From Candidatus Omnitrophota bacterium (GTDB taxonomy: Bacteria > Omnitrophota > Gorgyraeia > 2-01-FULL-45-10), in NCBI GenBank assembly GCA_041648975.1, contig JBAZNZ010000001.1, forward strand, positions 40,961 to 104,960: a stretch of DNA of 64,000 bases, read 5' to 3'. Below are positions 7,218 through 54,327 of this stretch, piece by piece. Made by a program: the position numbers and the translations under genes. The first letter of the stretch is position 1; each line of letters opens with the position of its first letter. Under the pieces are notes generated by a model. That model ran no database searches. It was not told the origin of the DNA and saw only the letters and a list, made by a program, of their open reading frames with translations.

Positions 7218-7829
7218 ATGACGGAAAAAGACGTATTGAAGATATTCGAGGACAACAACGCGCTTTTGACAGGCCACTTTAAGCTTTCAAGCGGCCTTCA
7301 TAGCGAGAAATATTTGCAGTGCGCGCTCGTCCTGCAATTCCCGGAGATCGCCCAGAAGCTGTCTGAGGAGCTGGCGAAGAAGTTTTCTAATCTCGGGAAG
7401 ATCGATCTTGTGGTAGGGCCGGCGCTGGGCGGAGTGACGCTGGCGTATGAGGTCGCGAGGGCGCTCGACGTAAGAGGGCTATTTACGGAGAGGCAAGAGG
7501 GCCCGCCTGCCGCGATAGAAATTCCGAGCAGTCGGGCAGGAAAGATGGTCCTTCGCAGAGGGTTTGCTATTAAAGCGGGTGAGAAGGCCCTGGTCGTGGA
7601 GGATGTCGTGACTACCGGCGGCTCGACGAAAGAGGTCATCGACGTAGTGAAGGCATGCGGGGGCGTAGTCGCGGGGGTCGGAAGCGTTATCGATAGGTCG
7701 AGCGCTCCCGTCGACTTCGGAGTGCCGTTCGCGGCGCTCGCCAGGGTGAAGGTCGAGACCTATAAAGAGGAAGCGTGCCCTCTCTGTAAAAAAGGTGTGC
7801 CGGTATACAAGCCGGGCTCGAGGAAGTAA
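7218..7829 (+). CDS. pyrE: orotate phosphoribosyltransferase
   Basis: 203-aa type I PRTase (VVEDVVTTGGS), last gene of the pyr cluster. Confidence 0.9.
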   Translation: MTEKDVLKIFEDNNALLTGHFKLSSGLHSEKYLQCALVLQFPEIAQKLSEELAKKFSNLGKIDLVVGPALGGVTLAYEVARALDVRGLFTERQEGPPAAIEIPSSRAGKMVLRRGFAIKAGEKALVVEDVVTTGGSTKEVIDVVKACGGVVAGVGSVIDRSSAPVDFGVPFAALARVKVETYKEEACPLCKKGVPVYKPGSRK

Positions 7830-7841
7830 AGCTTGTAATAC

Positions 7842-7887
7842 CAGAACCCTCGTGATATAGTAACATAACACTAATACGAGGGTTCTG
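7842..7887 (+). promoter_or_regulatory. 12-bp-stem hairpin between pyrE and the next ORF (CAGAACCCTCGT...ACGAGGGTTCTG)
   Basis: Perfect inverted repeat at 7842-7853 and 7876-7887 with a 22-nt loop and no T tract. The 3' arm contains the GAGGG RBS of the ORF at 7890. Confidence 0.4.
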
Positions 7888-7889
7888 TA

Positions 7890-8642
7890 ATGAAAGTTGA
7901 GGAAAGAAATAGGGCGCGACAATTACGCTCGAAGGGATGGTCTTTACGTGCCATAGCGTTTGAAATAAAGTGCTCTAAAAGCGTAGTAAGCAAGTGGATA
8001 TCGGACATACAATTAACAGAAAAACAGATAGAAAAATTAAAGGATAATCAAGATAGGGGACGAGCAAGGGCTGCTCAACATCCCAACAGCCCAAAAAAGA
8101 AATGGGAAAGAATAAGAAATGAGATTATCGAACAGTCATCGACAGAGATGCCAACGACCTTTTCAAAAACAGAGCTTAAAATTATAGGAGCCGCCCTATA
8201 TTGGGCTGAGGGATACAATGCTTCTCGAAATTATTTTTTGTTTACTAACTCTAATCCGGATATGATAAAAGTTATGATGCATTTTTTAAAAGAATGTTGC
8301 AATGTGCCGCTTAATAAAATTAAGGGGAGAGTTAATATCCACCCTCATCTGGATATTAAGAAAGCGGAAAAATTTTGGTTAAATGTTACTGGTATGCATA
8401 GATGTAACCTAAACAAACCGCTCCTGGCCGTAAGTAGAGCAAGCAAGCATAAAAAAGACACCTTACCTATGGGTACTTTTAATATAGGGATTTGTGATGT
8501 TTATTTGCTTTCAAAAGTTAAAGGGTGGATAAAAGGAATAGCCAAGGGGGCAGCTAGCTCAGTCGGTAGAGCATCCGGCTTACATCCGGAAGGTTCACAG
8601 GTTCGAGCCCTGTGCTGCCCACCAAATTTTACCAGAGTTTAA
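7890..8642 (+). CDS. HTH plus LAGLIDADG-like homing-endonuclease-like protein. The ORF reads through tRNA-Val, so the true C-terminus is uncertain
   Basis: N-terminal HTH (RNRARQLRSKGWSLRAIAFEIKCSKSVVSKWI), then IIGAALYWAEGY (a LAGLIDADG-like xxGxxxxxEG block). The reading frame has no stop before 8642 and overlaps tRNA-Val (8548-8624). Confidence 0.35.
   Translation: MKVEERNRARQLRSKGWSLRAIAFEIKCSKSVVSKWISDIQLTEKQIEKLKDNQDRGRARAAQHPNSPKKKWERIRNEIIEQSSTEMPTTFSKTELKIIGAALYWAEGYNASRNYFLFTNSNPDMIKVMMHFLKECCNVPLNKIKGRVNIHPHLDIKKAEKFWLNVTGMHRCNLNKPLLAVSRASKHKKDTLPMGTFNIGICDVYLLSKVKGWIKGIAKGAASSVGRASGLHPEGSQVRALCCPPNFTRV
8548..8624 (+). tRNA. tRNA-Val (anticodon TAC)
   Basis: Manual fold: acceptor GGGCAGC/GCTGCCC, anticodon arm TCCGG-CTTACAT-CCGGA, T arm ACAGG-TTCGAGC-CCTGT, encoded CCA. 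Confidence 0.85.
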
Positions 8643-8784
8643 CTCAAGTAAAATTTGTCCTGAGGAAGCTGAAGTTAGACTGTATGCTGACGAGGGGCTA
8701 CCTTTAAAAAGACTGCAGTTGTCTGAAAGGTTTTCCTTAATGTTCCTTTCCAAAATGGATGCAAAGAGGCGCAGAAAATAGTCC

Positions 8785-9033
8785 TTGATGAAAGAATGGG
8801 TTTTATATATAATTAAATGCCGCGACGGTTCATTATATACAGGTATTACGACCGATCTAAATAAGCGGCTTCGGCTTCACAACGAGGGTAAGGCATCGAA
8901 ATATACGCGATCCCGCAGGCCGGTCAGGCTGGCGCGTACAGAGGTCTTTAACAACGAATCTTCGGCAAGGAAGAGGGAGGCCGAGGTCAAAAGCCTTTCC
9001 CGCGCCGAGAAATTAGAATTAACAGCAAAATAG
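8785..9033 (+). CDS. GIY-YIG nuclease family protein (YhbQ/UPF0213-like), 82 aa
   Basis: WVLYIIKCRDGSLYTGITTDLNKRLRLHN is a canonical GIY-YIG signature. It ends 20 nt before tRNA-Asp. Confidence 0.75.
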   Translation: MMKEWVLYIIKCRDGSLYTGITTDLNKRLRLHNEGKASKYTRSRRPVRLARTEVFNNESSARKREAEVKSLSRAEKLELTAK

Positions 9034-9052
9034 CAGTTTAAGACACAAGACT

Positions 9053-9129
9053 GGGGACGTAGTTCAGTTGGTTAGAACGTCAGATTGTCGATCTGAAGGT
9101 CGCGGGTTCGACCCCCGTCGTCCCCGCCA
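9053..9129 (+). tRNA. tRNA-Asp (anticodon GTC), integration target of the island
   Basis: Acceptor GGGGACG/CGTCCCC, anticodon arm TCAGA-TTGTCGA-TCTGA, T arm GCGGG-TTCGACC-CCCGT, CCA encoded. The 3' 19 nt are repeated at 19436-19454. Confidence 0.85.
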
Positions 9130-9133
9130 TATA

Positions 9134-9165
9134 TAGCCGAGGGTAACACCTCGGCTATCTTTTTT
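9134..9165 (+). terminator. rho-independent terminator immediately after tRNA-Asp
   Basis: TAGCCGAGG-gtaaca-CCTCGGCTA stem-loop followed by TCTTTTTT. Confidence 0.6.
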
Positions 9166-9258
9166 ACGTCGGAGATCCTATTTGTCGTCGAGAAATCGTC
9201 GAGAGATAGGATTTTTTGTTTTCATGGCATTCTTGGAAATCTTGGTAATTTAGACACA

Positions 9259-9282
9259 TTTTGTCACGCGCTGTCACGCTGC
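9259..9282 (+). repeat. left arm-type repeat (TTTTGTCACGcgcTGTCACGCTGC), likely an integrase arm-binding site
   Basis: Direct TGTCACG repeats, and nearly the same 24-mer recurs at 19364-19387 near attR. Confidence 0.5.
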
Positions 9283-9398
9283 TACCCCACCGTCATTGCG
9301 AGGGCCGACCTGTCCTCCGAAGCTCGAAGAGCGAAGGAGGAAGGCCCGAAGCAATCTAATTCCCCGGGGATTGCCCCTATTTTTATAGAGGTAGCCCC

Positions 9399-9860
9399 AT
9401 GAAAGGCTACCAATTCCTTGAAAATGACTTCTTTGAACTTTGCCAGACCCGGGAGATAGGCCATACGCCTATGCTTCTCTATATCTACCTCAGAGGCCTA
9501 TTCTGCCGTTTCCAAAAGCCGATCTTTACCTGGCAGGACAAACAAACAATAAAACACCTCGGCATATCTCAAAGCACCCTCCTTAGAGCCAGGGAGTACC
9601 TCCAGACGCGGGGAATGATTAAATATGTGAGCGGCAAAGGCAGTCGGCATACCGAATATACCATGCTCGGCACCGTCCTTTTACCTATCATCAAAAAGAC
9701 GACAGGGTATCGTTACGCCAAGCCCATAAGGTATCGTCAAAATGACGACACCAATAATACGAGTAAAGAAAGATTAAAGAATATAGTAGGGAATGAAATA
9801 TTTAAGGGTATAACCGAAGAAGACAGGGCCTTTTTAAGGAACAAGGGGCTCTATGATTAG
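9399..9860 (+). CDS. hypothetical protein, possible winged-helix DNA-binding (phage/plasmid-like)
   Basis: 153-aa ORF, first gene inside the island. The central region TIKHLGISQSTLLRAREYLQTRGMIKY resembles an HTH. No catalytic motif. Confidence 0.4.
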   Translation: MKGYQFLENDFFELCQTREIGHTPMLLYIYLRGLFCRFQKPIFTWQDKQTIKHLGISQSTLLRAREYLQTRGMIKYVSGKGSRHTEYTMLGTVLLPIIKKTTGYRYAKPIRYRQNDDTNNTSKERLKNIVGNEIFKGITEEDRAFLRNKGLYD

Positions 9861-10074
9861 CCCGTGGAGCCTCATAAGGTGTCTAATATATCCCAAAACC
9901 TATATACGGGTGGATGTAATTTATGCCGCGGAAACCACCAAGGCTGTGTTAATCATATTCGACGGCCGAAAAGCATGGATACCTAAGGCCTGGATTGCGC
10001 GGCTTAAACGGACAGGAGGCAGATCTATTAAGATTAAAATATCAGATTATCACTGGGCCAAAAAATTTGCGTAG
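9853..10074 (+). CDS. hypothetical small protein (73 aa)
   Basis: ORF overlapping the previous stop (ATGA-type junction), basic C-terminus, no motif. Confidence 0.3.
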   Translation: MISPWSLIRCLIYPKTYIRVDVIYAAETTKAVLIIFDGRKAWIPKAWIARLKRTGGRSIKIKISDYHWAKKFA

Positions 10075-10165
10075 CATAGCGTTAAGAATCTAAAGCTAGT
10101 TTATCCCTTATCTATGATAGATGGTGTAAATCGTAAATAAGCACTTTATAATCTACGATACTCAT

Positions 10166-10296
10166 AAATTACTAATAAATTACTAATATCTACTAAATTA
10201 GTAATTTACTTGACATTTTTTTATATATTATGTACACTTATAATTGCAATTAGGCACTAAATACTAACCAATTACTAATGAAAGCTAAATTAGTAA
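10166..10296 (+). promoter_or_regulatory. cluster of AAATTACTAAT/ATTAGTAATTT dyad motifs flanking a TTGACA promoter upstream of the island Fic gene
   Basis: Copies at 10166-10176, 10177-10187 and 10197-10207 (inverted), plus 10270-10279 and 10287-10296 (inverted). TTGACA at 10210-10215. Confidence 0.45.
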
Positions 10297-10330
10297 CGGT
10301 ATATCTTTTGTAACTAAATAGGATGAAAAA

Positions 10331-11722
10331 ATGAAAATACCTGAAAATGCGCCAAAATTGGAATCACTAAAGCCGGGATATTTTGAAAAATTGTTTGATG
10401 TTCAAAGCTCAAAAGAAATGTCTTATATTGCTACATTGGCAAATAAGGAATATCTTTATTGGGATAAATTCAAATATCTTAATTTTCCCGAAACCGTCCC
10501 TCCAGATCTTGCCTGGATATCTCTTAAATTGACGCGAAATTCTCAAATTAAGAAAATACCGCTTCGCGATACTAATGGCCGATATTTCGGATGCTGGCTT
10601 CCGGATGAGGTGTTAAAATATTTGCATGAAATTGATCAAAAAGCAAGCGGCCAGATTCTCGTTGACGATCCAATGACTCATGCAGGCGAGAAAGAGCGAT
10701 ATTTAATTAATTCTATAATGGAAGAAGCTATCGCATCCAGCCAACTTGAGGGGGCAGCTATTACAAGAGAAAAAGCAAAAGAGATGCTGCGATTAGGAAA
10801 AAAGCCGGTCGACATTGCCGAACAGATGATATTAAATAATTATATTACAATAAGGGGTATAAAAAAAATTATAGACAAGCCATTATCCCGAGATCTAATT
10901 ATTAAAATACAGGCCTCAATAACCAAGGATACGCTTGAGAACGCTGATGCTGTGGGACGATTTAAGAAAAAAGGTGAAGAATATCAGGTTGTTGACCAGG
11001 GCGATGGAGTAGTTTTGTTTGATCCGCCGCCGGTGGATGAGATCGACGAGCGAATACAGGCTTTATGTGATTATGCGAACGAAACAAAAAACGATACCTT
11101 TATCCATCCCGTAGTCAAAGCAACCATATTGCATTTTTGGCTTGCGTATATACATCCGTTTGTCGACGGCAATGGAAGAACGGCAAGAGCTCTATTTTAT
11201 TGGCACATGTTAAAAAACAATTATTGGCTATTCGAGTATCTGTCTATTTCGCGAATATTGTACCGAACCCCGGAACAATACAAAAGAGCATTCGTCTATT
11301 CAGAAATTGACGAACAAGATATGACATACTTTTTGATGTTTAATGTGCGTGCAATCGATCTATCTATAAAAAGCCTGCATTTATATTTAGCCAAGCAACA
11401 ACAAGAATTTCAGGAAACAGTCGGACTAATACGAAAATATCCCGGCTTAAATCATCGGCAATGCGATCTTTTATATCATGCAGCTTCTCATCCGCGAGCC
11501 CTGTACACTGTCAAGTTTCAACAGAACGTTCATAATGTAGCATACCAGACCGCCAGGACCGATCTTTTAGAACTTGAGAAAAAAGGGTTTTTATCAAAGA
11601 TAAAAGCAAAAGGCAAGGAGTTTGTTTTTGTCCCAGCGAAAGAACTTCACTCAAAAATTAAAAACTTACTAACAAGTAGAAATTCCCATAATGGGAATAG
11701 CCCAGAAAGTGCCCACCCATGA
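10331..11722 (+). CDS. Fic/DOC family protein (463 aa) with C-terminal winged helix
   Basis: Fic active-site motif HPFVDGNGRTARAL (HPFx[DE]GNGR). Confidence 0.8.
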   Translation: MKIPENAPKLESLKPGYFEKLFDVQSSKEMSYIATLANKEYLYWDKFKYLNFPETVPPDLAWISLKLTRNSQIKKIPLRDTNGRYFGCWLPDEVLKYLHEIDQKASGQILVDDPMTHAGEKERYLINSIMEEAIASSQLEGAAITREKAKEMLRLGKKPVDIAEQMILNNYITIRGIKKIIDKPLSRDLIIKIQASITKDTLENADAVGRFKKKGEEYQVVDQGDGVVLFDPPPVDEIDERIQALCDYANETKNDTFIHPVVKATILHFWLAYIHPFVDGNGRTARALFYWHMLKNNYWLFEYLSISRILYRTPEQYKRAFVYSEIDEQDMTYFLMFNVRAIDLSIKSLHLYLAKQQQEFQETVGLIRKYPGLNHRQCDLLYHAASHPRALYTVKFQQNVHNVAYQTARTDLLELEKKGFLSKIKAKGKEFVFVPAKELHSKIKNLLTSRNSHNGNSPESAHP

Positions 11723-11784
11723 CAACTAGGGTGGCGACAAAAGAAATGAGCGGAGGAGTTAGATGAGAGGAAGAGAAGGGTTTT

Positions 11785-12009
11785 ATGATAAAAATTGCTG
11801 ATAGAGATGTAGTGCTAATGTTTGCCGCAATTCCTATCGTAGTTATAGTTATGTCGATAATTACTTTTGGATTTATTAGCCCCTTTCCTAACCCGTCCAA
11901 AATAAGCTCAGCCATTATTTTACTGTTAATAATAGTTTGGATATTTTTGTTATCGTATCTCATTATCCGCTTCATCATTTGGGCGGTAAAGACATTACGA
12001 AAGAGATGA
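11785..12009 (+). CDS. small membrane protein (74 aa, 2 TM)
   Basis: Two hydrophobic helices. Its stop overlaps the ATG of the next small ORF (ATGA at 12006-12009). Confidence 0.35.
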   Translation: MIKIADRDVVLMFAAIPIVVIVMSIITFGFISPFPNPSKISSAIILLLIIVWIFLLSYLIIRFIIWAVKTLRKR

Positions 12010-12122
12010 AAAATAAGAAATTAGAGATAATGCTTATTTATCTTGCCATATTCGGCGTTCTATTGTTATTTGGATTATATGGAAGGTATATATTTGCGTT
12101 TATATTCCAAATCCCCAACTGA
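12006..12122 (+). CDS. small membrane protein (38 aa, 1 TM), translationally coupled to the previous ORF
   Basis: ATG at 12006 is in frame with the annotated ORF 11937..12122. MKNKKLEIMLIYLAIFGVLLLFGLYG is a single TM helix. The longer 61-aa form is also possible. Confidence 0.3.
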   Translation: MKNKKLEIMLIYLAIFGVLLLFGLYGRYIFAFIFQIPN

Positions 12123-12127
12123 GAAAA

Positions 12128-12173
12128 AATAGGGACAGCGCTCATTTTTCGCAAAATAAATAGTCGCTGATCC
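12128..12173 (+). repeat. island 46-bp repeat copy R1 (AATAGGGACAGCGCTCATTTTTCGCAAAATAAATAGTCGCTGATCC)
   Basis: Member of a 7-copy family, 27 bp before the start of the 12201 gene. Confidence 0.85.
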
Positions 12174-12200
12174 TAAATAAGATGAATATGGAGTAAGCGC

Positions 12201-13448
12201 ATGGCAAGGGATGAAGCATTGTTTTGTAGACTGGGTGATATGCATGATTTTTTGGAAAAGCAAAAGCTTGGATACAGAGCTGAGATCGAATGTTTAAATA
12301 GAGATTACATTTTAAAAGTCAGCGAACAAGATTTATGCAAAAGCCTGATAGATAAACATACCCTAGAAACGCCTGCTTTACATGATGACAAATTATATGC
12401 CCTACCCGCAAGAGACGCAAATATAGATGTAAGCGGTAGGTGTGATTATGCAATATCTAGGCGCGAGAGTCCTTATTATGTTAAAGGTACTTCTATAACA
12501 ATAGCCATTCCATTTGAAGGCGATGGACAATTTTTCGAGTTCAGCCCGTCAGTCTATACATCGTATTTTCCTCGAGGGGTCATAACAGACAATGAAATTC
12601 TTCTCACATATAACGGTGTAAACATGGAACCTGCAAAAGTCAAAAGTGAATACGAAAATGACGTGAAAATAATAAAGGAACATTTGAGATCCATCTCTAA
12701 CATGGTAAAGCAACACAATGGATTTATAGAATCAGAAACAAAACGGCTTGTTGCAAATCGAAAAGACAAAATATTAAAAGAGCATAATTTAGTAGCCGCT
12801 CTCGGAATACCGATAAAAAGGCGGGAAGATTCACCAGCCACTTATACTATTCCTACCGTTCGAAGAAAACCCAAAATAGAATTACCTAAGGTTGGGGGTG
12901 GTGTTTTTAAACCAGAACCCACATTAGCCGAAACCGAATATGAACATATCTTAAAAATAATACACGATATGGCATTGGTGCTCGAAAGAAGTCCACGCGT
13001 ATTTATCGATATTAAAGAAGAAAACTTGCGAACACATTTCTTAGTTCAGCTTAATGGTCAGTATGAAGGAAAAGCAACAGGAGAAACATTTAATTTCAAC
13101 GGAAAAACAGACATTTTAATTCGAGATGACGGAGGAAATATATTTATTGCAGAATGTAAATTCTGGACTGGAGACAAAGGATTTACGGAAACAATAGACC
13201 AACTTTTAAAATATGTAACTTGGCGCGATACCAAAACGGCAATCATTCTTTTTAATAGGAACAAAGAGCTCTCATCTGTTTTATCAAAAATACCAGAGAT
13301 TGTAAAATCTCATAAATGCTTCAAGCGCGAACTTGGTAACAAAAATGAAACGTCTTTTAAGTATGTCTTTCAGCAACCTAGCGATTTGAATAGGGAATTA
13401 CTTTTAACAGTAATGGTGTTTGATGTACCAACAGAATTTAAAAGCTAA
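12201..13448 (+). CDS. PD-(D/E)xK nuclease-fold protein (415 aa), possible standalone defence nuclease
   Basis: C-terminal region E-x(n)-D-x(n)-ECK: KTDILIRDDGGNIFIAECKFW, a restriction-endonuclease-like core. N-terminal 250 aa have no recognisable domain. Confidence 0.45.
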   Translation: MARDEALFCRLGDMHDFLEKQKLGYRAEIECLNRDYILKVSEQDLCKSLIDKHTLETPALHDDKLYALPARDANIDVSGRCDYAISRRESPYYVKGTSITIAIPFEGDGQFFEFSPSVYTSYFPRGVITDNEILLTYNGVNMEPAKVKSEYENDVKIIKEHLRSISNMVKQHNGFIESETKRLVANRKDKILKEHNLVAALGIPIKRREDSPATYTIPTVRRKPKIELPKVGGGVFKPEPTLAETEYEHILKIIHDMALVLERSPRVFIDIKEENLRTHFLVQLNGQYEGKATGETFNFNGKTDILIRDDGGNIFIAECKFWTGDKGFTETIDQLLKYVTWRDTKTAIILFNRNKELSSVLSKIPEIVKSHKCFKRELGNKNETSFKYVFQQPSDLNRELLLTVMVFDVPTEFKS

Positions 13449-13483
13449 AATGACCAAGCAAGTGAGTGTGTCTAATAATAAAA

Positions 13484-13529
13484 AATAGAGACAGCACCTA
13501 TTTTTTGCAAAATAAATAGTCACTAACTC
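13484..13529 (+). repeat. island repeat copy R2 (diverged: AATAGAGACAGCACCTATTTTTTGCAAAATAAATAGTCACTAACTC)
   Basis: Same family, 33 bp upstream of the 13563 ORF. Confidence 0.8.
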
Positions 13530-13562
13530 AAATTGGCAGAAAATAATATTAGGAGATAAAAA

Positions 13563-13781
13563 ATGGAAATAAAAGAATCTGCTAAAGAAATAACTAAAAA
13601 AATGGACTTTATTTCAGGGGAAATAGCAACTTTTAAAGAAGCTCTTTGTACAATTATCGATAAAGCAAATAATACAACCGATAAAATGTTTTGGGCTTCA
13701 ATAATATATTTTTTAGGCAGCCTTATTCTTTCGGGGACTATTGCTTTTGCCGCACTAGTCCAAGCGAAGATATTAAGATGA
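13563..13781 (+). CDS. small protein (72 aa) with a C-terminal TM helix
   Basis: Hydrophilic N-terminus, then IIYFLGSLILSGTIAFAALV TM segment. Confidence 0.35.
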   Translation: MEIKESAKEITKKMDFISGEIATFKEALCTIIDKANNTTDKMFWASIIYFLGSLILSGTIAFAALVQAKILR

Positions 13782-13812
13782 TCTATGCAAAAAAGGCGAA
13801 TGGTTAGAAATG

Positions 13813-13855
13813 AGGAACGGTGTCTATCTTTTGCAGAATAAATAGTCGCCGACCC
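13813..13855 (+). repeat. island repeat copy R3 (diverged)
   Basis: AGGAACGGTGTCTATCTTTTGCAGAATAAATAGTCGCCGACCC, 34 bp upstream of the 13890 ORF. Confidence 0.75.
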
Positions 13856-13889
13856 GATTTAGGATTTTACTCAATTCCATCTAATAATT

Positions 13890-14642
13890 ATGGCTATTAA
13901 TTTTAATTCTATAAGAAATTTTATAAGGTATGGAGTAGATGTTAATAAACCTTTTTTAAAACTGTATGATATAGAAAAATTACGGCTTGATATAGAAGGG
14001 CTAAATCATAATATCAAAACGATCGATTATTATATGAGATCAGACCTTGACCCAGAGAATTTTTATTTAGAGCCAAATAAAGAGTTTTATAAAATGACAT
14101 TAAATGCCCAGGCAAATGTTATGCTGAACAGAATTGGATTTTCTCAAATTGATTGCCTAGTATGTTTTAGTAAAATTAAAGGAGCGGGACTTTTTATTGA
14201 AAAGCCAATCCCGTCTTTTAATATAAATGATAAAAGCCTATCATGGTCCAATAAAAATATTTCTCTCGAAATACAAATTTCATCTGCATTTAGAAATAAC
14301 CCTTTAATCATATCTGGAATTTTAGCGCATGAAATAACACATTTTTATTTTAAAAAGAAAAACTTAGGTAAATTATTCGATGCAAAAATTTCAGAAGAAA
14401 ATAATTGTGACCTGTCATCATTTTTGCTTGGATTTGGTAAGTTTGTTCTTAATAGTATTGGAGAGACAGGTAGAAATAGCGCTGATGCGGCAATTAAAAT
14501 AAAACATTATTTACCATGGTATTACCTTTGCTATATTTATGAAACGATAAATAGGATAAAAGCAATCTCAGAGGATATTTCGCAAAAAAATCTTACCAAT
14601 AGAGCGCTGAGTATGCTGTATGAGATTAACAGATGTTTTTAG
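13890..14642 (+). CDS. hypothetical protein with an HExxH zinc-metallopeptidase-like motif (250 aa)
   Basis: ILAHEITHFYF contains HEITH (HExxH). Asn/Lys-rich, no signal peptide. Confidence 0.4.
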   Translation: MAINFNSIRNFIRYGVDVNKPFLKLYDIEKLRLDIEGLNHNIKTIDYYMRSDLDPENFYLEPNKEFYKMTLNAQANVMLNRIGFSQIDCLVCFSKIKGAGLFIEKPIPSFNINDKSLSWSNKNISLEIQISSAFRNNPLIISGILAHEITHFYFKKKNLGKLFDAKISEENNCDLSSFLLGFGKFVLNSIGETGRNSADAAIKIKHYLPWYYLCYIYETINRIKAISEDISQKNLTNRALSMLYEINRCF

Positions 14643-14659
14643 AAAATTAAGAATACCGA

Positions 14660-14691
14660 AAATTTTTCGCAAAATAAATAGTCGCTGACCC
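14660..14691 (+). repeat. island repeat copy R4 (5'-truncated; no ORF follows before R5)
   Basis: AAATTTTTCGCAAAATAAATAGTCGCTGACCC lacks the GGGACAGCGCCC left part. Confidence 0.75.
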
Positions 14692-14744
14692 TAATTATTC
14701 TACATTGCCACCTCATGAAGGTATGAGAATACCTATAAGGAAAA

Positions 14745-14790
14745 AATAGGCGCAGTGCCCATTTTTCGCAAAATAAATAGTCGCTGACCC
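14745..14790 (+). repeat. island repeat copy R5
   Basis: AATAGGCGCAGTGCCCATTTTTCGCAAAATAAATAGTCGCTGACCC, 53 bp upstream of the 14843 ORF. Confidence 0.85.
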
Positions 14791-14842
14791 CCTTAAACAT
14801 TTAAACATTAAAGCATTAAAGAGAAAAGAATTAGGAGGAGAT

Positions 14843-15106
14843 ATGAACAAAACGTTATTATTTATTCTGGCATTGTTTTTAGTTTTATTACCAAATGTCT
14901 GTTTTTCCCAAATAGATAGGGATATTGACAATGATGGCGTTTGGGATGCTGACAAGGGCGGAGTTGATAGAGACTTAGATAATGACGGAGTTTGGGATTC
15001 CAATCAAGGTGGCGTGGACAGAGATATTGACAATGATGGCGTTTGGGATGCTGACAAGGGCGGAGTTGATCGAGACTTAGACAACGATGGCGTGTGGGAT
15101 CAATAA
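14843..15106 (+). CDS. secreted Ca-binding-repeat protein (87 aa; signal peptide plus 4x DxDxDG loops)
   Basis: N-terminal signal peptide MNKTLLFILALFLVLLPNVCFS. Four DRD(I/L)DNDGVWD loops matching the DxDxDG calcium-binding motif. Confidence 0.55.
   Translation: MNKTLLFILALFLVLLPNVCFSQIDRDIDNDGVWDADKGGVDRDLDNDGVWDSNQGGVDRDIDNDGVWDADKGGVDRDLDNDGVWDQ
14921..15103 (+). repeat. near-perfect 102-bp tandem duplication inside the Ca-binding-repeat gene
   Basis: GATATTGACAATGATGGCGTTTGGGATGCTGACAAGGGCGGAGTTGAT recurs at 14921 and 15023 with a 102-bp period. Each unit contains two 51-bp half repeats. Confidence 0.8.
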
Positions 15107-15118
15107 GAAGAGTAGAGA

Positions 15119-15173
15119 AATAGAACAGCGCCCATTTTTCGCAAAATAAATAGTCGCTGATCCTAATTATCTG
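15119..15173 (+). repeat. island repeat copy R6
   Basis: AATAGAACAGCGCCCATTTTTCGCAAAATAAATAGTCGCTGATCC, about 47 bp upstream of the 15218 ORF. Confidence 0.85.
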
Positions 15174-15217
15174 TTAAAAAGAATTGATATGCTTAAGTCA
15201 ATAGCGGGGGTGTGAGA

Positions 15218-15481
15218 ATGGCTATAAAAGATATAAGAGATTTTACACTCGAAGAAATTGTAAATAAAGCCACGAAAGGAATGGTGCCTCAAGATACCGA
15301 TAAATCTGTCTCTATGATAAGCTCCGCAGATGTTCTTAAAATTGTTGCTGATTTCAAAATTGCTCAGAAGCAGGATGAGCTAAATACAAAATTAATTCGG
15401 CTTACTAAATGGCTTGTTATATTAACTATCACACTTGTTATTTTAACGATTATTTTAACTTACAAAACCGTCAATCCATAA
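15218..15481 (+). CDS. small protein (87 aa) with a C-terminal TM anchor
   Basis: ATG 15218 preceded by GGGGGTG. C-terminal LTKWLVILTITLVILTIILTY helix. Confidence 0.4.
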   Translation: MAIKDIRDFTLEEIVNKATKGMVPQDTDKSVSMISSADVLKIVADFKIAQKQDELNTKLIRLTKWLVILTITLVILTIILTYKTVNP

Positions 15482-15499
15482 GCAGGGTAAATAAGAGAA

Positions 15500-16639
15500 A
15501 TGAAACGAACTATCCTAGCAATAGTTTTTCTTTTCACCTTAGCCCTTACCAGTGCTGCTTACGAATCATCTCCTGCCCAAGTTACCGATATATCCGACCG
15601 AGCGTATGAAGGGGCGATTATAAAGCTGCTCGACAGCGCGAAGCAGTCGATAACCATATCGATGTACACCATCACGCTGGCAAGCGAGAAGCGCAATCCG
15701 ATATCGATGCTTCTGAATGACCTGTTGGAGGCGCGGTCGCGCGGCGTAGCGGTAACCCTCTATCTCAATACGCGGTTCAAAGGCGATAAGGATATCCGCG
15801 GTAACCTGGAACGAAATCCCGCACTCAAGAAACTGCAGGACGCCGGATGCGTGATACACTTCATGGCGCCGAACAAACGGCTCCACGATAAGCTTATCAT
15901 AGTTGACGGCCGGTACGTGGTAGAAGGCTCGACCAACTGGTCTCTCTCGGCGCTATTGGATAATTACGAGTCAGCTACATTGATAGATTCGCCGGGACTC
16001 GCGCGCGTAAAACTCATGCGGCTTCAGGCGATGGCGCTCGCCGGAGAAGAAGCTCCGGGAGCGCTCGAGATAAAGCGCTCATTATATTCGGATAAGATGC
16101 CTGCCGAAATAGGACTACCCGAAGTTCTTCTTACCGATAGGCGGTACTTCCCGAAAATGGTAACAGAGAGAGATGAGCGCGCTATGGACGCGTATCTAGT
16201 CTTGTCGGCTATCTCGGCCGCGGGTGGGGACAATGAATTTTTCGTGGATCTTGAGTCGCTGGCTGTCAGCCTGGGGCTCAAGGCAGACGCCACGGACAGC
16301 GATCTCAGGCGCCAGGCGATCCGCTGGCTGAAAGATCTCGATGAGAACTACAAACTCATAGAGGTCCGCTTCTTCCATGGCAAGGATGCTCATGTGAAAC
16401 TTGTCACGCTTGAGGGGCCCCGCTTCCGGATAGGTTCGGCGATAACGCTCCCTGCGACCGACGGCAAGCTTTCGGCGCGAGTCAAGTTCATGAGAATGAT
16501 TAAGGCATATCTCGATGCACGCGGCGAGGATATAAATGCAATCTCCGACTATGAGCTTGCCGGCCGGTTTTACGCCAGCCGGCGGATGTTTTGTGACGCG
16601 CGAAGGGACATGTTAAAAGGGAATATAGGGGAAAGATAA
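15500..16639 (+). CDS. secreted phospholipase D/nuclease-family (single HKD) protein, 379 aa
   Basis: Signal peptide MKRTILAIVFLFTLALTSAA. HKD motif HDKLIIVDGRYVVEGSTNWS (HxK-x4-D-x6-GSxN), then a C-terminal domain of unknown function. Confidence 0.65.
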   Translation: MKRTILAIVFLFTLALTSAAYESSPAQVTDISDRAYEGAIIKLLDSAKQSITISMYTITLASEKRNPISMLLNDLLEARSRGVAVTLYLNTRFKGDKDIRGNLERNPALKKLQDAGCVIHFMAPNKRLHDKLIIVDGRYVVEGSTNWSLSALLDNYESATLIDSPGLARVKLMRLQAMALAGEEAPGALEIKRSLYSDKMPAEIGLPEVLLTDRRYFPKMVTERDERAMDAYLVLSAISAAGGDNEFFVDLESLAVSLGLKADATDSDLRRQAIRWLKDLDENYKLIEVRFFHGKDAHVKLVTLEGPRFRIGSAITLPATDGKLSARVKFMRMIKAYLDARGEDINAISDYELAGRFYASRRMFCDARRDMLKGNIGER

Positions 16640-16655
16640 ATGAGGGGAGAGTAAT

Positions 16656-16814
16656 ATGGCTGACGGAGGATTCATAATAAAGTTTAACGGAAAAGAGATT
16701 AAGCGATGTTATGCGGTGGCGTTCGATTACGATGAATGGAAATATACGGTTAATGAGAAGGAAGAAAAAGCATTGCCACAAGATGTTAAATCCATTACTA
16801 TTGAGGTAGAATAG
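16656..16814 (+). CDS. possible small ORF (52 aa), unannotated in the 60-aa track
   Basis: ATG 16656 after GAGGGGAGAG. MADGGFIIKFNGKEIKRCYAVAFDYDEWKYTVNEKEEKALPQDVKSITIEVE, stop TAG 16812-16814. Confidence 0.25.
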   Translation: MADGGFIIKFNGKEIKRCYAVAFDYDEWKYTVNEKEEKALPQDVKSITIEVE

Positions 16815-16832
16815 TAATAAAATGAGATCGAA

Positions 16833-17612
16833 ATGAAGAAAACGCTTAAAGGTGATATATATTATTTTGTGGATGAATCGGGCGATCCCTGTTTCTATGA
16901 TAAGAACGGCAATTATATCGTAGGACAAGAAGGGTGTTCAAAAATGCTTATGCTTGGCTTTATCCAAACGGATGAACCTAAGCATATAAGAAAGGCTCTT
17001 GACGAGGTGCGGGAGAAAATTAAGAATGATCAGTATTTAAAAGAGATCCCATCCATTGAAAAATCATTGAAACATTTCCACGCTACCGATGACTGTCCAG
17101 AGGTGAGGCAGGCAGTATATAATTGTTTGAGCACGCTTAATTTTAAGGCCCAATTCGTGGTTGCACGTAAAATCGAAGGTGTTTTTAAGAAGCACGACTG
17201 CGATGAGAATAAGTTCTACGATTCGCTCATAGAGCATTTATTCAAAAACGTTCTTCACAGAGCGGAGACGAACCACATCTATTTTTCAAAGCGCGGATCC
17301 AGCACCAGGCAAGAGCCGCTGGAAAAGGCGATTGACCGCGCCAAGAATCAGTTTGAGAAGAAGTTTTTTATTAAAGTACGCTCTAACGTTGATATTCAGT
17401 CTCAGGTTCCTACAGGGGAGCCGTGTTTACAGGTAATCGATTACATGAACTGGGCCATACAGAGAGTATTTGTAAAGGGTGAGATGAGGTACTTTAATTT
17501 TGTGAAGGATAAGGTGAGTTTTGTCTGGGATATTTATGATACGGGCAAATACCCTAAGAACTTTTATAGCAAGGCGAATGAACTTGATAGCAAAAAAACA
17601 AGCCTTCTATAG
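16833..17612 (+). CDS. DUF3800 family protein (259 aa)
   Basis: N-terminal DIYYFVDESGD motif typical of DUF3800. Confidence 0.6.
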   Translation: MKKTLKGDIYYFVDESGDPCFYDKNGNYIVGQEGCSKMLMLGFIQTDEPKHIRKALDEVREKIKNDQYLKEIPSIEKSLKHFHATDDCPEVRQAVYNCLSTLNFKAQFVVARKIEGVFKKHDCDENKFYDSLIEHLFKNVLHRAETNHIYFSKRGSSTRQEPLEKAIDRAKNQFEKKFFIKVRSNVDIQSQVPTGEPCLQVIDYMNWAIQRVFVKGEMRYFNFVKDKVSFVWDIYDTGKYPKNFYSKANELDSKKTSLL

Positions 17613-17736
17613 CTAGGTGGTTTCCCACACACGGCATGACGCCGGCTTTCGCTATTAGAAGACTCGAGTATTAGTATACCCTAAAATAAACGCAAGTCAA
17701 GGGCTCTCATAAAAAATAAAATAATTAAAAAAGTAC

Positions 17737-17765
17737 TTGACAGATGCCCAAGCATATGCTATTAT
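17737..17765 (+). promoter_or_regulatory. sigma70 promoter (TTGACA-17-TATTAT) for a leaderless cI-like repressor gene, overlapping operator O1
   Basis: TTGACA 17737-17742, TATTAT 17760-17765, ATG at 17773 with no RBS. ATGCCCAAGCAT dyad at 17744-17755. Confidence 0.55.
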
Positions 17766-17772
17766 TTAAACG

Positions 17773-17952
17773 ATGACAGATCAGGAGATCGTAGGGAAGA
17801 TAGAGACATACCTGTCAAAGAATAATCTCCGGCAGTACGAGCTAGCAAAGCAGATAGGCGTTCCAGAATCAACGATTAATAGATGGCTGAAGAGAAAGAC
17901 TAAGATTTCGAACGCCTATAGAGCTGTGTTAAAGACAAAAGGGATTATATGA
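17773..17952 (+). CDS. small HTH (Cro/C1-type) transcriptional regulator, 59 aa
   Basis: NNLRQYELAKQIGVPESTINRWLKRKTKIS is an XRE-family HTH. Not in the ORF track (<60 aa). Stop TGA at 17950-17952. Confidence 0.6.
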   Translation: MTDQEIVGKIETYLSKNNLRQYELAKQIGVPESTINRWLKRKTKISNAYRAVLKTKGII

Positions 17953-17976
17953 TTTTTTTTGGATTCAAAATTAGCA

Positions 17977-18036
17977 TATGCCCAAGCATAAGACAATATT
18001 TTTTTGTCTAAAAAATGAGCATGTGCCAAAGCACAT
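17977..18036 (+). promoter_or_regulatory. operators O2 (TATGCCCAAGCATA, 17977-17990) and O3 (ATGTGCCAAAGCACAT, 18021-18036) upstream of xis
   Basis: Dyad-symmetric motifs related to O1, positioned between the repressor gene and the excisionase RBS (GGAGGTGGGAG, ATG 18054). Confidence 0.5.
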
Positions 18037-18053
18037 AACCATGGAGGTGGGAG

Positions 18054-18239
18054 ATGACGCTTGTAACGGCAAAAGAGGTGTCGGAGAAGTATAGCATTCC
18101 CCCGGGAACGGTCTATTACTATGTCTCAAGGAACGAGATCCCGCACTATCAAATAAGGGGCAGAAGAAAATTTAACCCTGTTGAAATAGAAAATTGGATC
18201 AACCAGGGGAGATCGAGTGTCAATTCTAAAGTTTGGTAG
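18054..18239 (+). CDS. excisionase/Xis-family DNA-binding protein (HTH_17-like), 61 aa
   Basis: YSIPPGTVYYYVSRNEIPHYQIRGRRKF is an excisionase-type HTH, directly upstream of and overlapping the integrase. Confidence 0.65.
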   Translation: MTLVTAKEVSEKYSIPPGTVYYYVSRNEIPHYQIRGRRKFNPVEIENWINQGRSSVNSKVW

Positions 18240-19287
18240 GATATACAGTCGGAACGACAGCCCGTTCTTATGGATCTGGTACTATGATGCCAACGGGAAA
18301 AGGCACAGAGAGAGCACCGAGACAAATAATAAGAAGCTGGCAGAGGAGATACTTCATAGCAGGATTATCGAATTTCAAAGCCTGCAAAACGGCAATAAGA
18401 CAGTCAGCGATATGCCGTATGCACATTTCTCAGCGGAATTTCTAAAGCACTATAAAGCGCGGTATCCCTATGAGACATTTAAATCTCACAGCAGCGCGGT
18501 CAATGAGTTCACCAAATTCTTAAACTTTGCCGGTATAAGCCGATTATCCGAGATCACGACGGCGGTAATAGATAAATATATTACATACCTGAGAGAATCA
18601 AAGGGGAATAGGGCCAATACCTGCAATAACCACCTGAAGAATATCAAAACCCAGTTCAATTTTGCGATCAGTCATAATTTAATGAGAGAGAATCCGGCCA
18701 AGAGTTGCCGGAAGGTCGAAGTAAACGACGCTAAGAAGAAGAGCGCCCTTTCGCCAGATGAATATAAGAGTTTTATGGCGATCGCGGAAAAGGAACACCC
18801 ACACTACTATCCGATATACTACACCTTTATCCATACCGGCCTTAGGTTTACGGAGCTGATCAAATTAAAGTGGCAGGATATCGACTTTGAGAATAAAGTG
18901 CTATGGATCATGAAGCCCAAGTGCAAGAAGAAGCCGGATTTTGTCAGTATGCACGATAGTCTTATAAGGACTCTGGAGGATTTAAAGAAAGAGAGCGACA
19001 GCGAATATGTCTTTACCGATGAAAAAGGCGAGCCGTTTGGATTTAGGACCCGGAAGATCATACGACGGCTGAAAAACATACTAAAAACGGCCAATATTGC
19101 CAGCATAAGCACCGTTCACGAGCTCAGGCATACACATTGCAGCTACCTTTTCAATATAGGGCTCAATACGCGAGAAGTCATGGAGCAGATGAGGCATACA
19201 GAGATGAGGACCACGGAAGGGTATGCGCATATATTTAGGCCGGAAGCCAATAGGAAAATAAAGAAATTGGAGAGGTTGGATCGATGA
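18217..19287 (+). CDS. tyrosine-type site-specific integrase (phage integrase family)
   Basis: Catalytic region TGLRFTELIKLKWQDI...ELRHTHCSYLF...TTEGYAHI (R...HxxR...Y), with an N-terminal SAM-like core-binding domain. Adjacent to attR. Confidence 0.85.
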   Translation: MSILKFGRIYSRNDSPFLWIWYYDANGKRHRESTETNNKKLAEEILHSRIIEFQSLQNGNKTVSDMPYAHFSAEFLKHYKARYPYETFKSHSSAVNEFTKFLNFAGISRLSEITTAVIDKYITYLRESKGNRANTCNNHLKNIKTQFNFAISHNLMRENPAKSCRKVEVNDAKKKSALSPDEYKSFMAIAEKEHPHYYPIYYTFIHTGLRFTELIKLKWQDIDFENKVLWIMKPKCKKKPDFVSMHDSLIRTLEDLKKESDSEYVFTDEKGEPFGFRTRKIIRRLKNILKTANIASISTVHELRHTHCSYLFNIGLNTREVMEQMRHTEMRTTEGYAHIFRPEANRKIKKLERLDR

Positions 19288-19320
19288 ATAGAGATTGCTT
19301 CGCTTCGCTCGCAATAACGA

Positions 19321-19344
19321 TAGGGCACACTAAAGTGTGCCCTA
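19321..19344 (+). promoter_or_regulatory. perfect 10-bp-arm palindrome TAGGGCACAC-TAAA-GTGTGCCCTA just after the int stop
   Basis: Seen directly. No T tract follows, so it may be a terminator-like hairpin or a protein site. Confidence 0.35.
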
Positions 19345-19363
19345 CAATACGATGGGATGGGAT

Positions 19364-19387
19364 TTTGTCACGAAATTGTCACGCTGC
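19364..19387 (+). repeat. right arm-type repeat (TTTTGTCACGaaatTGTCACGCTGC)
   Basis: Matches the left-end 24-mer at 9259-9282. Confidence 0.5.
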
Positions 19388-19404
19388 GAAAAATTCACAC
19401 CAAT

Positions 19405-19809
19405 TTACCGACGGAGAGACCACTTCACGTCACACACCCCCGTCGTCCCCGCCAATTGGTAAAGGGAGCGCTCGATAGATAATGTCGGAAGGTACCTTCC
19501 GACGAAAAATTTATCCGCCGCCATATAAAAGTAGTAACTGGTTAAATACCAGCCCTTTAGCCGTAACAAGTTGATAACACGACTGGTTACGGCTATTTTA
19601 TTTGTCTTGCGTGTTTTGAGAATTAGTAAGTTGACAGACGTCCTATTTAGCACGCTTGAAAGCATAGCTACATCATGTTCAGTGAATGCAAACGGTAATA
19701 TGTAAGAATGTTTCCTTGTTTTGAACTGGTGCCAAATTGGCACCAGTTCCTTCCATTCCTCATCGGTAAGTTGAAACATAAATTCTTTAGGAGATCTCAC
19801 GGGACACAT
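19405..19809 (-). pseudogene. N-terminally truncated ORF6N-domain protein whose 3' end runs into attR
   Basis: FMFQLTDEEWKELV...LPFAFTEHDVAMLSSVLN matches the conserved ORF6N core, but the about 40-aa N-terminal part typical of the family is absent. The last about 10 codons lie in attR/island DNA. Confidence 0.35.
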
Positions 19810-52711: not shown

Positions 52712-53032
52712 ATGGCCAGTTTCGAGGATTTTAAAAAACTGGAATTCAAGACAGCGAAGATAAAAGAGGTGAACGACCACCCTAATGCCGACAGGCTATA
52801 CGTGATAATGCTCGACGTGGGGGATAAGACAAAACAGGTCGTTGCAGGCATAAAGAACGCGTATAAGAAAGAGGATCTCGTCGGTCGCCAGGTCGTCCTG
52901 GTCGATAATCTCGATCCGGCTATGCTGCGCGGCGTGGAGAGCCAGGGCATGATACTGGCCGCTTCCGACGATAAGGGGATGGCGATAGTGACGCCCGACA
53001 AAGAGATGACGCCGGGGAGCGTCGTAAAGTAA
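52712..53032 (+). CDS. tRNA-binding protein (CsaA/EMAP-like domain)
   Basis: KIKEVNDHPNADRLYV...GIKNAY signature of the Myf/EMAP tRNA-binding fold. Confidence 0.7.
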   Translation: MASFEDFKKLEFKTAKIKEVNDHPNADRLYVIMLDVGDKTKQVVAGIKNAYKKEDLVGRQVVLVDNLDPAMLRGVESQGMILAASDDKGMAIVTPDKEMTPGSVVK

Positions 53033-53117
53033 AGTTTTGCGCGTCTGTCCTCCTTCGCTCTTCAGAGTGAGATTATGGTAGAGCTTCGGCGGGACTGGGC
53101 GCCGGAGTAAGAATGGA

Positions 53118-53233
53118 GCGCCTGTAGCTCAGTTGGATAGAGTATCTTCCGCCTATGCTGCACAGAAAAACAACACATGGCGGATCCGCCATGAATAGTT
53201 TTGAGTTGGGTTTAGGCGGAGGCTACGAACCAG
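53118..53233 (+). pseudogene. degenerate tRNA-Arg fragments (5' acceptor and D arm at 53118-53144; anticodon-loop 13-mer at 53221-53233) separated by a 76-nt insert
   Basis: GCGCCTGTAGCTCAGTTGGATAGAGTA matches the first 27 nt of tRNA-Arg at 53482 with 3 mismatches. GGCTACGAACCAG is identical to its anticodon region. No T arm or acceptor 3' strand follows. Confidence 0.5.
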
Positions 53234-53243
53234 AGTATGTTTT

Positions 53244-53504: not shown

Positions 53505-53558
53505 AGTAACTGGCTACGAACCAGTAGGTTGGCCGTTCGAGCCGGCCCGGGCGCGCCA
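53482..53558 (+). tRNA. tRNA-Arg (anticodon ACG)
   Basis: Acceptor GCGCCCG/CGGGCGC, anticodon arm ACTGG-CTACGAA-CCAGT, T arm GGCCG-TTCGAGC-CGGCC, CCA encoded. Confidence 0.85.
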
Positions 53559-53574
53559 CTCTTGAAGAACATAT

Positions 53575-54039: not shown

Positions 54040-54113
54040 ATGTAGTCCCTCGCATCATGAATTAGGCAATATATGCTCGGGACGATTTACCTCAAGTTAA
54101 ATGACAGTAAATC

Positions 54114-54207: not shown

Positions 54208-54327
54208 TTTTTTTGGTGAACCCTCCGACGAGAGCCATAGCTAGTTTTGGCTTGCGCAGAAGGGGATTCGAATTACGGATAAATATTTGTTAAGTGGAAA
54301 AATTATTATGCTGAAAAGGGATGAACA

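Follow-up and report, generated by a model that had tools for sequence, protein, structure and literature searches.

Why should small nuclease-type genes lie directly against the 5′ ends of tRNA genes? The question is raised by a 64 kb stretch of the genome of a Candidatus Omnitrophota bacterium (the window, meaning the whole stretch analysed), in which three open reading frames (ORFs), one with a helix-turn-helix (HTH) region and two of the GIY-YIG family, abut or overlap tRNA genes. Comparison of ~170 related loci revealed that such docking at tRNA 5′ ends is a rule across these gene families, in Candidatus Omnitrophota as well as in Patescibacteria. Judged from their sequences, the three ORFs are probably free-standing selfish cassettes of the homing-endonuclease type, seated at the 5′ edge of tRNA genes.

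Three ORFs docked at tRNA 5′ ends

Five tRNA genes (Val, Asp, Arg and two Ser) were predicted in the window by ARAGORN and confirmed by Rfam. The three that carry one of the ORFs are listed with their partners.

7890-8642, + strand: ORF 7890, 250 aa, with an N-terminal HTH, an alpha/beta domain and a tRNA-derived tail
8548-8624, + strand: tRNA-Val(TAC), intact (ARAGORN and Rfam)
8785-9033, + strand: GIY-YIG ORF 8785, 82 aa, catalytic domain only (Pfam PF01541, 2e-19)
9053-9129, + strand: tRNA-Asp(GTC), intact (ARAGORN and Rfam)
53244-53504, + strand: GIY-YIG ORF 53244, 86 aa (Pfam PF01541, 2e-16)
53482-53558, + strand: tRNA-Arg(ACG), intact (ARAGORN and Rfam)

ORF 7890 has a stop codon neither before nor within tRNA-Val and is open through the whole tRNA. 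Its codons 220-245 (GAASSVGRASGLHPEGSQVRALCCPP) are tRNA-Val sequence, followed by five codons and TAA, which confirmed the first-pass annotation of this DNA in describing the end of the protein as a translated tRNA. The D loop of this tRNA-Val (AGTCGGTAGA) is without the in-frame TAG that terminates most homologous ORFs, and for this reason the frame remains open. The GIY-YIG ORF at 8785-9033 was found to stop 19 nt 5′ of tRNA-Asp; the adjacency had been noted before, with a distance of 20 nt that needs correction. The same arrangement recurs at tRNA-Arg(ACG), as had also been proposed: GIY-YIG ORF 53244-53504 overlaps the tRNA by 23 nt, its last seven codons and its stop (the D-loop TAG) being tRNA-Arg sequence. 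Reading into a tRNA, earlier ascribed to ORF 7890 only, is thus shared by two of the ORFs.

Hidden Markov models (HMMs) of both families, run against the six-frame translation of the 64 kb, found only ORFs 7890, 8785 and 53244. Every member in the window is therefore docked 5′ of a same-strand tRNA, and the earlier count, a nuclease-family gene on the 5′ side of three of the five tRNAs, stands with no further family members. By our own estimate, the chance of one ORF end falling within ~60 nt upstream of one of five same-strand tRNAs is ~0.002. The G + C content of ORF 7890 is 37%, against 54% for the adjacent pyrF-pyrE, and the cassette ORFs have a lower G + C content than their flanks in the window and in six other loci. 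Rfam scans of 7700-9400 and 52900-54300 (Intron_gpI at E<=10) found no group I intron or other known RNA except the tRNAs.

The tRNA association in related genomes

A protein database contained 191 homologs of ORF 7890, nearly all from Candidatus Omnitrophota, with 53-78% identity and typically 221-230 aa. Most terminate in KGWIxGLxxWAxSSVG-stop, which is the translated acceptor stem and D arm of a tRNA with the D-loop TAG as stop; longer homologs continue via SGLHPEG, the translated anticodon arm of tRNA-Val(TAC). A scan of one genome per species yielded 80 loci of this family, in which tRNAs were called with intron-aware calls included, and 74 loci were evaluable. In 61 of the 74, a same-strand tRNA began no more than 100 nt from the stop codon; these loci are distributed as follows.

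Val(TAC): 22 loci, in near relatives among the Omnitrophota, with the stop mostly 10 or 23 nt into the tRNA
Glu(CTC): 8 loci, a second Omnitrophota clade
Gly(GCC): 9 loci, Patescibacteria
Pro(TGG): 4 loci, Patescibacteria
Met(CAT): 3 loci, Patescibacteria
Phe(GAA), uninterrupted: 2 loci, Patescibacteria
tRNA split by a group I intron: 13 loci, called by ARAGORN as 12 Phe(GAA) and 1 Asn

At the intron-split loci the ORF ends 1-27 nt 5′ of the tRNA, except at one locus, where it ends 10 nt inside.

Some 7890-type ORFs have no downstream tRNA: four start ~15-60 nt after a tRNA-Glu(TTC) (L051, L056, L071, L078; L numbers denote compared loci) and five stand divergent beside a tRNA 5′ end (L047, L055, L058, L072, L079), so that the association may not always be with the 5′ side and the same strand. 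Two 7890-type genes within a few kb of each other were found inside dense tRNA clusters in L026 (4001-4663 and 4809-5486), L032 and L041, the order in L026 being tRNA-Leu, tRNA-Val, ORF, tRNA-Phe, ORF, tRNA-Gly. The 7890-type gene of L004 (4001-4736) has an early in-frame stop at 4162, with similarity persisting up to the tRNA, and is probably a decaying copy.

Both window GIY-YIG proteins score far above the PF01541 cut-off of 22.6 bits (69.9 bits for ORF 8785-9033 and 60.4 bits for ORF 53244-53504). The catalytic residues expected of the superfamily are the Tyr of GIY, the Tyr-x-Gly of YIG, and an Arg, a His and a Glu. Residues Y5, Y16, G18 and E63 are invariant in the alignment and R27 and H31 nearly so, and all are present in both proteins. 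The domain spans nearly the whole protein, in the window (82 and 86 aa) as in the homologs (77-111 aa). Scanning metagenomes for the ORF 53244 clade yielded 80 loci; 74 were evaluable, and in 66 of these a same-strand tRNA started within ~100 nt of the stop. The commonest offset was -10 (22 loci), at which the stop is T8-A9-G10 of the tRNA. The tRNAs were Asn(GTT) (~30, including intron-bearing ones), Val(TAC) (8), Lys(TTT) (8), Ile(TAT) (5), Val(GAC) (5) and several others, and cassettes similar at the DNA level have the tRNA type in common. Homologs P0122 and P0127 have a tRNA-derived tail like that of ORF 53244-53504. Cassettes orthologous to ORF 8785 were found between tRNA-Val and tRNA-Asp in L006, L008, L013 and L170-L173, and are missing in ~15 related loci.

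Duplicated tRNA 5′ parts and hairpin units

When each tRNA was compared with its own locus, a recurrent layout was revealed: an old copy of the tRNA 5′ part (a scar), then the ORF, then the intact tRNA. In the window it is seen at tRNA-Arg.

53118-53147, + strand: tRNA-Arg scar, nt 1-30, 24 of the first 27 nt identical (blastn-short)
53148-53220, + strand: GC-rich hairpin insert of 73 nt within the scar (repeat search)
53221-53233, + strand: tRNA-Arg scar continued, nt 31-43 (anticodon loop), 13 of 13 nt identical

The scar ends (53233) 10 nt before the start of ORF 53244. Its insert has an outer stem (TCCGCCTA/TAGGCGGA) and an inner palindrome (CATGGCGGATCCGCCATG); its positional homologs are the twin-hairpin inserts found in L176 and at two Asn loci, L099 and L100. 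In L176, a 65%-identical relative at tRNA-Arg(ACG), two GIY-YIG genes stand in tandem and a scar with the break points of the window lies between the copies. Further scars upstream of 53244-clade ORFs comprise Lys 1-36, Asn 1-29 or 1-22, Val 1-17, and His 1-17 plus 18-40. A tRNA-Asp 1-32 scar lies 5′ of the GIY 8785 homolog of L006, and the 7890 family has tRNA-Val 1-23 upstream of the ORF in L020 and shorter remnants at two other loci, L014 and L017. In L086, L099, L125/126, L130 and L160 a second partial tRNA copy, made up of a hairpin insert and the tRNA 3′ part, lies 3′ of the intact tRNA; these copies may reflect either a cassette with terminal repeats or separate events.

The scars of the 53244 clade are broken by 15-nt units, TC[A/C]GCC-NNN-GGC[T/G]GA, usually paired and located after nt 8, 12, 17, 29/30 or 36 of the tRNA gene. 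The 80 loci of the clade contain 183 such units, of which 119 lie no more than 150 nt upstream of the ORF. One or more units were found in 64 of the loci; in 7890-family loci the units are about ten times less dense. The variable stem position is Watson-Crick paired in 151 of 155 units (80 C-G and 69 A-T), and a T precedes 39 of 46 twin units. No canonical unit was found in the window, which has one variant alone, inside the tRNA-Arg scar.

Empty sites and other occupants

The order ntpK - 7890-type ORF - tRNA-Val - tRNA-Asp was found in at least 11 loci, and pyrF or pyrE - 7890-type ORF - tRNA-Val in the window, L006, L008, L009, L015 and L025. These ORFs match the window protein at levels of identity comparable to those seen for neighbouring genes. 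Since it is syntenic with tRNA-Val across many Omnitrophota, the 7890-type cassette at this tRNA is old there and mostly vertically inherited, with loss or replacement in some lineages. The first-pass annotation had set insertion against an ancient, syntenic origin; the 7890-type ORF at tRNA-Val is indeed ancient and syntenic, but the same contexts also exist without it. Related genomes were searched for empty flanks, as had been suggested, and these were found for the 7890-type ORF in L170 and L171 (ntpI-ntpK-tRNA-Val) and L172 (pyrF-pyrE-tRNA-Val, its pyrE being 69% identical to that of the window). L134 has pyrF - scar - GIY - Val - Asp at the same site, and L139 has atpD - scars - GIY - Val - Asp where L001 has atpD - 7890-type ORF - Val - Asp. 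The spacer between tRNA-Val and tRNA-Asp is similarly variable.

Empty, 56-66 nt: L004, L014, L015, L024 (the empty flanks for the GIY-YIG ORF)
80-190 nt: 7 loci
GIY 8785-type ORF: window, L006, L008, L013, L170-L173
23S-rRNA-intervening-sequence (IVS)-type ORF: L019
GIY plus LAGLIDADG gene: L173

The LAGLIDADG gene of L173 (1769-2728; also in L174) encodes 319 aa with HTH_23 and two LAGLIDADG_3 domains (Pfam 1.3e-13). It lies between the GIY-YIG gene and tRNA-Asp and its stop is 10 nt inside the tRNA, so that two nuclease cassettes are stacked with the LAGLIDADG one proximal to the tRNA. Empty and filled alleles thus occur at an otherwise conserved site, as is the case for free-standing homing endonuclease genes. 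Together with the scars, the different occupants and an adjacency of 82-89% in evaluable loci, they support the earlier proposal that these genes land by preference on tRNA 5′ flanks.

The spacer ORF of L019 (4803-5162) encodes a 23S-rRNA-intervening-sequence protein (PF05635, 1e-19), of a family otherwise reported from rRNA insertions in bacteria of the candidate phyla radiation (CPR).

Group I introns in neighbouring tRNAs of relatives

In Patescibacteria-type contigs, group I introns of ~190-560 nt were found in the anticodon loops of tRNA-Phe(GAA) and tRNA-Asn(GTT) (L045, L050, L053, L057, L059, L060, L063, L064, L067, L073, L074, L076 and L077, and further L089, L098, L101, L105, L108, L114, L137, L143 and L145). 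The intron lies within the tRNA and the nuclease-type ORF outside it.

The introns of L108 and L137 contain ORFs with a CxxC...H motif, HNH-like in look. Most intron-bearing Asn genes are miscalled by ARAGORN as tRNA-Thr(TGT). An apparent transfer-messenger RNA 3′ end upstream of several Patescibacteria ORFs was rejected, as it is actually the 3′ part of a group I intron with the tRNA 3′ exon.

Leader region and proposed mechanism

The ORF 7890 cassette has a leader of its own, and a terminator-like hairpin follows the second tRNA.

7833-7861, + strand: promoter-like site TTGTAA-17-TATAGT (consensus scan)
7842-7853 and 7876-7887, + strand: arms of a perfect 12-bp inverted repeat that straddles the -10 box (repeat search)
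9133-9158: terminator-like hairpin directly after tRNA-Asp(GTC)

The right arm of the inverted repeat bears the GAGG ribosome-binding site. Alignment of 22 homologous ORFs gave the leader consensus TTGACA - GAACCTCTGTA - TTATAAT - loop - TACAGAGGTTC - N4 - ATG, in which the arms pair in 83% of cells across the 22 loci, compared to 33-47% in slid controls, with compensatory changes in 7 of the 12 pairs. The repeat could be an operator for the HTH protein, or could form a hairpin that silences translation of read-through transcripts.

We propose that a cassette is composed of its leader, a small nuclease-type ORF and a 3′-terminal replacement of the first part of the tRNA. It would enter within the tRNA gene, where its 3′ end and the resident 3′ part would make up an intact tRNA, and the displaced old 5′ part would remain upstream as a scar, as at tRNA-Arg of the window (53118-53233); in the 53244 clade the scars would be further split by the 15-nt GC-rich hairpin units, usually pairs. 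Because the ORF abuts the regenerated tRNA, its stop would commonly be the tRNA's own U8-A9-G10 TAG or the D-loop TAG. The proteins are presumed to cleave cassette-free tRNA alleles, after which double-strand-break repair (homing) would spread the cassettes.

The cassettes would be co-transcribed with the tRNA. As there are no terminator-like sites between 7833 and 9133, a single transcript that starts at the 7833 promoter may cover ORF 7890, tRNA-Val, the GIY-YIG ORF and tRNA-Asp and end at the terminator-like site (9133). From what is established about tRNA processing, the RNase P cut at the tRNA 5′ end would remove the stop codon of the nuclease mRNA and might thereby limit expression.

Identity of the ORF 7890 protein

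The protein can be divided into an HTH region (residues ~1-60), an alpha/beta domain (~86-219) with the motif LYWAEG, and the tail (220-250). The HTH match is weak (HTH_38, 5e-6, just under the Pfam cut-off); matches to HTH_38 and HTH_23 are clearer in homologs, the rest of the protein being unmatched, and NCBIfam gave merely weak matches to transposase HTH regions. None of the Pfam profiles LAGLIDADG_1, _2 and _3 matched ORF 7890, 54 homologs or 10 distant homologs (65 members, E<=1). Alignment of the family by hhalign to approximate sequences of I-DmoI and I-CreI gave no match, and alignment to the true LAGLIDADG protein of L173 paired the HTH alone. The motif L103-Y104-W105-A-E107-G108 is invariant in the family and located at a helix end. 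We take it to resemble the second motif of I-DmoI, LYVAEG; the family HMM over this region aligns with 6 bits, which is not significant. Two AlphaFold2 (AF2) models of the family were confident (predicted local distance difference test, pLDDT, 87-89), and the order of secondary-structure elements, as we read it, may fit a LAGLIDADG core, of alpha-beta-beta-alpha-beta-beta-alpha fold, with an insertion between strands 3 and 4. A BFVD fold search gave matches that were all sub-threshold (E >0.3), several of them to homing-endonuclease- or intein-bearing proteins (template modelling score, TM, 0.40-0.46). The first-pass annotation had called the protein HTH plus LAGLIDADG-like: the HTH holds weakly, and the LAGLIDADG part was not recovered in Pfam, PDB sequence or fold searches. 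With the motif resemblance alone remaining, that label is unproven.

An H-P-H motif and conserved Tyr/Ser residues led to HUH-nuclease and serine recombinase being considered for the C-terminal domain; neither had profile or fold support and both were rejected.

Other features near the window tRNAs

A classic integrase island lies at the 3′ end of tRNA-Asp (9130-19454): a repeat of the final 19 nt of the tRNA lies at 19436-19454, beside a tyrosine integrase gene at 18217-19287. Genes for a Fic-domain protein (10331-11722), for a PLD-like nuclease (15500-16639) and for a DUF3800 protein (16833-17612) form part of the cargo, and the G + C content drops to 25-40%. Both sides of this tRNA-Asp thus have an occupant. 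On one side of tRNA-Arg(ACG) is the gene for a stand-alone tRNA-binding-domain protein (52712-53032, PF01588), and on the other that for a tadA-type deaminase (53575-54039); tadA is the enzyme that edits A34 of tRNA-Arg(ACG).

Weighing the explanations

Several points weigh against selfish homing cassettes. Nuclease activity, target specificity and homing are for all these proteins predicted from sequence. The GIY-YIG proteins of 80-86 aa lack a DNA-binding domain, the part on which the specificity of known GIY-YIG homing endonucleases depends. The C-terminal domain of the 7890 family (~86-219) had no Pfam match in any of the 65 members and was left unmatched by a PDB sequence profile search with the family; Foldseek comparison of the two AF2 models with the PDB gave nothing significant and no LAGLIDADG protein, the best matches being OmpA-like (TM ~0.44). 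No tRNA-Val or tRNA-Asp scar is recognisable upstream of window ORFs 7890 and 8785. Where there is a scar, it and the adjoining intact tRNA are often 100% identical, and at loci without an intron, all three of the window among them, the host tRNA would have no intron to protect it from cleavage. The GIY 8785 family is very large and has distant members in ordinary operons, away from tRNAs, which makes the tRNA association a property of the Omnitrophota branch. Finally, the synteny of ntpK/pyrE - ORF - tRNA-Val - tRNA-Asp across many Omnitrophota also fits a vertically inherited host gene.

Taken further, that last point would make the ORFs host genes, ordinary or domesticated, whose function is linked to tRNA and which are vertically inherited and sometimes lost, for example an autoregulated transcription factor of the tRNA operon (the HTH protein) and housekeeping repair nucleases sharing tRNA promoters (the GIY-YIG proteins). 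The synteny amounts to at least 17 Omnitrophota loci; the many invariant residues of the 7890 family imply purifying selection; the promoter is the family's own, with a conserved, operator-looking inverted repeat; and the large GIY 8785 family, with its members in ordinary operons, would be at home here too. We nevertheless think it quite unlikely, as both synteny contexts occur ORF-free (L170-L172), the site is occupied by different gene families, there are scars and tandem copies, the tRNA differs from clade to clade and in some cases bears an intron, and G + C lies 8-15 points under the flanks. Passive accumulation, in which foreign ORFs land anywhere and survive beside tRNA 'safe harbours' and the overlap is an accident of ORF calling, seems to us highly improbable: foreign DNA is known to gather at tRNA genes, as does the integrase island at tRNA-Asp in the window, and the stop positions are opportunistic and frame-dependent, but junctions inside the tRNA sequence, duplicated 5′ parts, the constant strand and 5′ side, the tRNA specificity of clades and an adjacency of 82-89%, against a chance expectation well under 1%, are not what it predicts.

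The hairpins suggest another possibility, namely that the GIY-YIG protein and the GC-rich hairpins form a transposon-like system, closer to REP/RAYT or IS200/IS605 than to classical homing, in which a structure-specific nuclease mobilises the hairpins and itself into tRNA gene DNA. The tight linkage of the TCNGCC-NNN-GGCNGA units to the 53244 clade, the kept stem pairing, the T before twin units, the defined tRNA positions and the lack of a DNA-binding domain in the GIY-YIG proteins all agree with it. It appears very unlikely all the same, because the hairpins are seen in dead tRNA copies only, and so may be secondary colonisers or selected for breaking up the repeat, and because the window holds a variant hairpin in place of canonical units. 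To our knowledge, no transposase-like chemistry is known for bacterial GIY-YIG proteins. A bolder proposal, which we regard as unlikely, is an undescribed class of tRNA-specialised mobile element made up of ~80-aa GIY-YIG nucleases without DNA-binding domain and 15-nt hairpins. It would work by 'cleave-and-rescue' under an RNase P throttle: the cassette would disable the resident tRNA copy and supply a rebuilt one, and the hairpins would be recognition or immunity elements at fixed tRNA positions.

Significance

The tRNA genes are well known as integrase targets at their 3′ end. If the selfish homing cassettes proposed here are real, nuclease cassettes at the 5′ end would be a second, mechanistically different exploitation of tRNA genes by selfish DNA in large uncultured phyla. 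The loci form a natural series (empty, cassette, cassette with scar, tandem cassettes, cassette with intron-bearing tRNA) that could make the proposed origin of mobile introns from free-standing endonucleases, by collaborative homing, testable in cellular genomes. For annotation, tRNA-invading ORFs, pseudo-tRNA fragments and intron-split tRNAs are miscalled in these genomes. The proteins are predicted to be possible sources of compact sequence- or structure-specific nucleases.

Comparison with known systems

Like integrase islands at tRNA 3′ ends, the cassettes target a tRNA gene and would rebuild it through a carried copy of the displaced part; unlike them, they lie at the opposite tRNA end, have no integrase within, measure 0.3-0.8 kb and leave 5′-end repeats.

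In fungal mitochondria, an endonuclease ORF at atp6 reportedly duplicates the displaced end of its host gene. Such free-standing ORFs enter a conserved gene and carry a replacement gene end, as proposed here, and short GC-rich double hairpins are found at the same places in both settings (PMC10085805 and Paquin et al. cited there). The 15-nt units recall these double-hairpin elements (DHEs; PMC10085805) in form. Here, in contrast, it is a tRNA gene that is entered, in bacteria, and its 5′ end that would be replaced.

The rRNA insertions of CPR bacteria (PMC11270868) involve the same lineages and the same three families (LAGLIDADG, GIY-YIG and 23S-rRNA-IVP), likewise in conserved structured-RNA genes. 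Those insertions interrupt the rRNA and need removal, whereas the cassettes lie outside the mature tRNA and would regenerate it; the CPR study makes no mention of tRNA (PMC11270868).

In collaborative homing, an intron that interrupts the target of an endonuclease protects its host (PMC2988022), and collaborative or trans homing (PMC2988022, PMC2790892) pairs a free-standing endonuclease with an adjacent gene that carries an ORF-less group I intron. A layout of this kind was found in Patescibacteria, with a 7890-type ORF 1-27 nt upstream of intron-split tRNA-Phe(GAA) and a GIY-YIG ORF upstream of intron-bearing tRNA-Asn. The window tRNAs differ in being intron-free, and the known cases are phage protein-coding genes.

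The T4 protein SegB is a GIY-YIG homing endonuclease that recognises the tRNA T-psi-C motif (PMC2330249), a precedent showing that such an enzyme can recognise a tRNA gene sequence. The window GIY-YIG ORFs resemble SegB and its kin (PMC2330249, PMC2988022) in being free-standing GIY-YIG genes among tRNA genes, and the SegB gene is also missing from related genomes. SegB is full-length with a DNA-binding region, phage-borne and located between tRNA genes; the proteins described here are predicted catalytic domains of 80-86 aa, encoded in bacterial chromosomes by ORFs that abut or overlap the tRNA 5′ end, and their loci, unlike those of SegB, leave duplicated tRNA 5′ parts and hairpin inserts. 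The classical I-TevI/Seg type has a separate DNA-binding domain and ~200-250 aa in total, which the 82- and 86-aa window proteins do not. The full-text literature searched, which does not extend to subscription journals, contained no account of nuclease cassettes docked at the 5′ ends of tRNA genes in bacteria.

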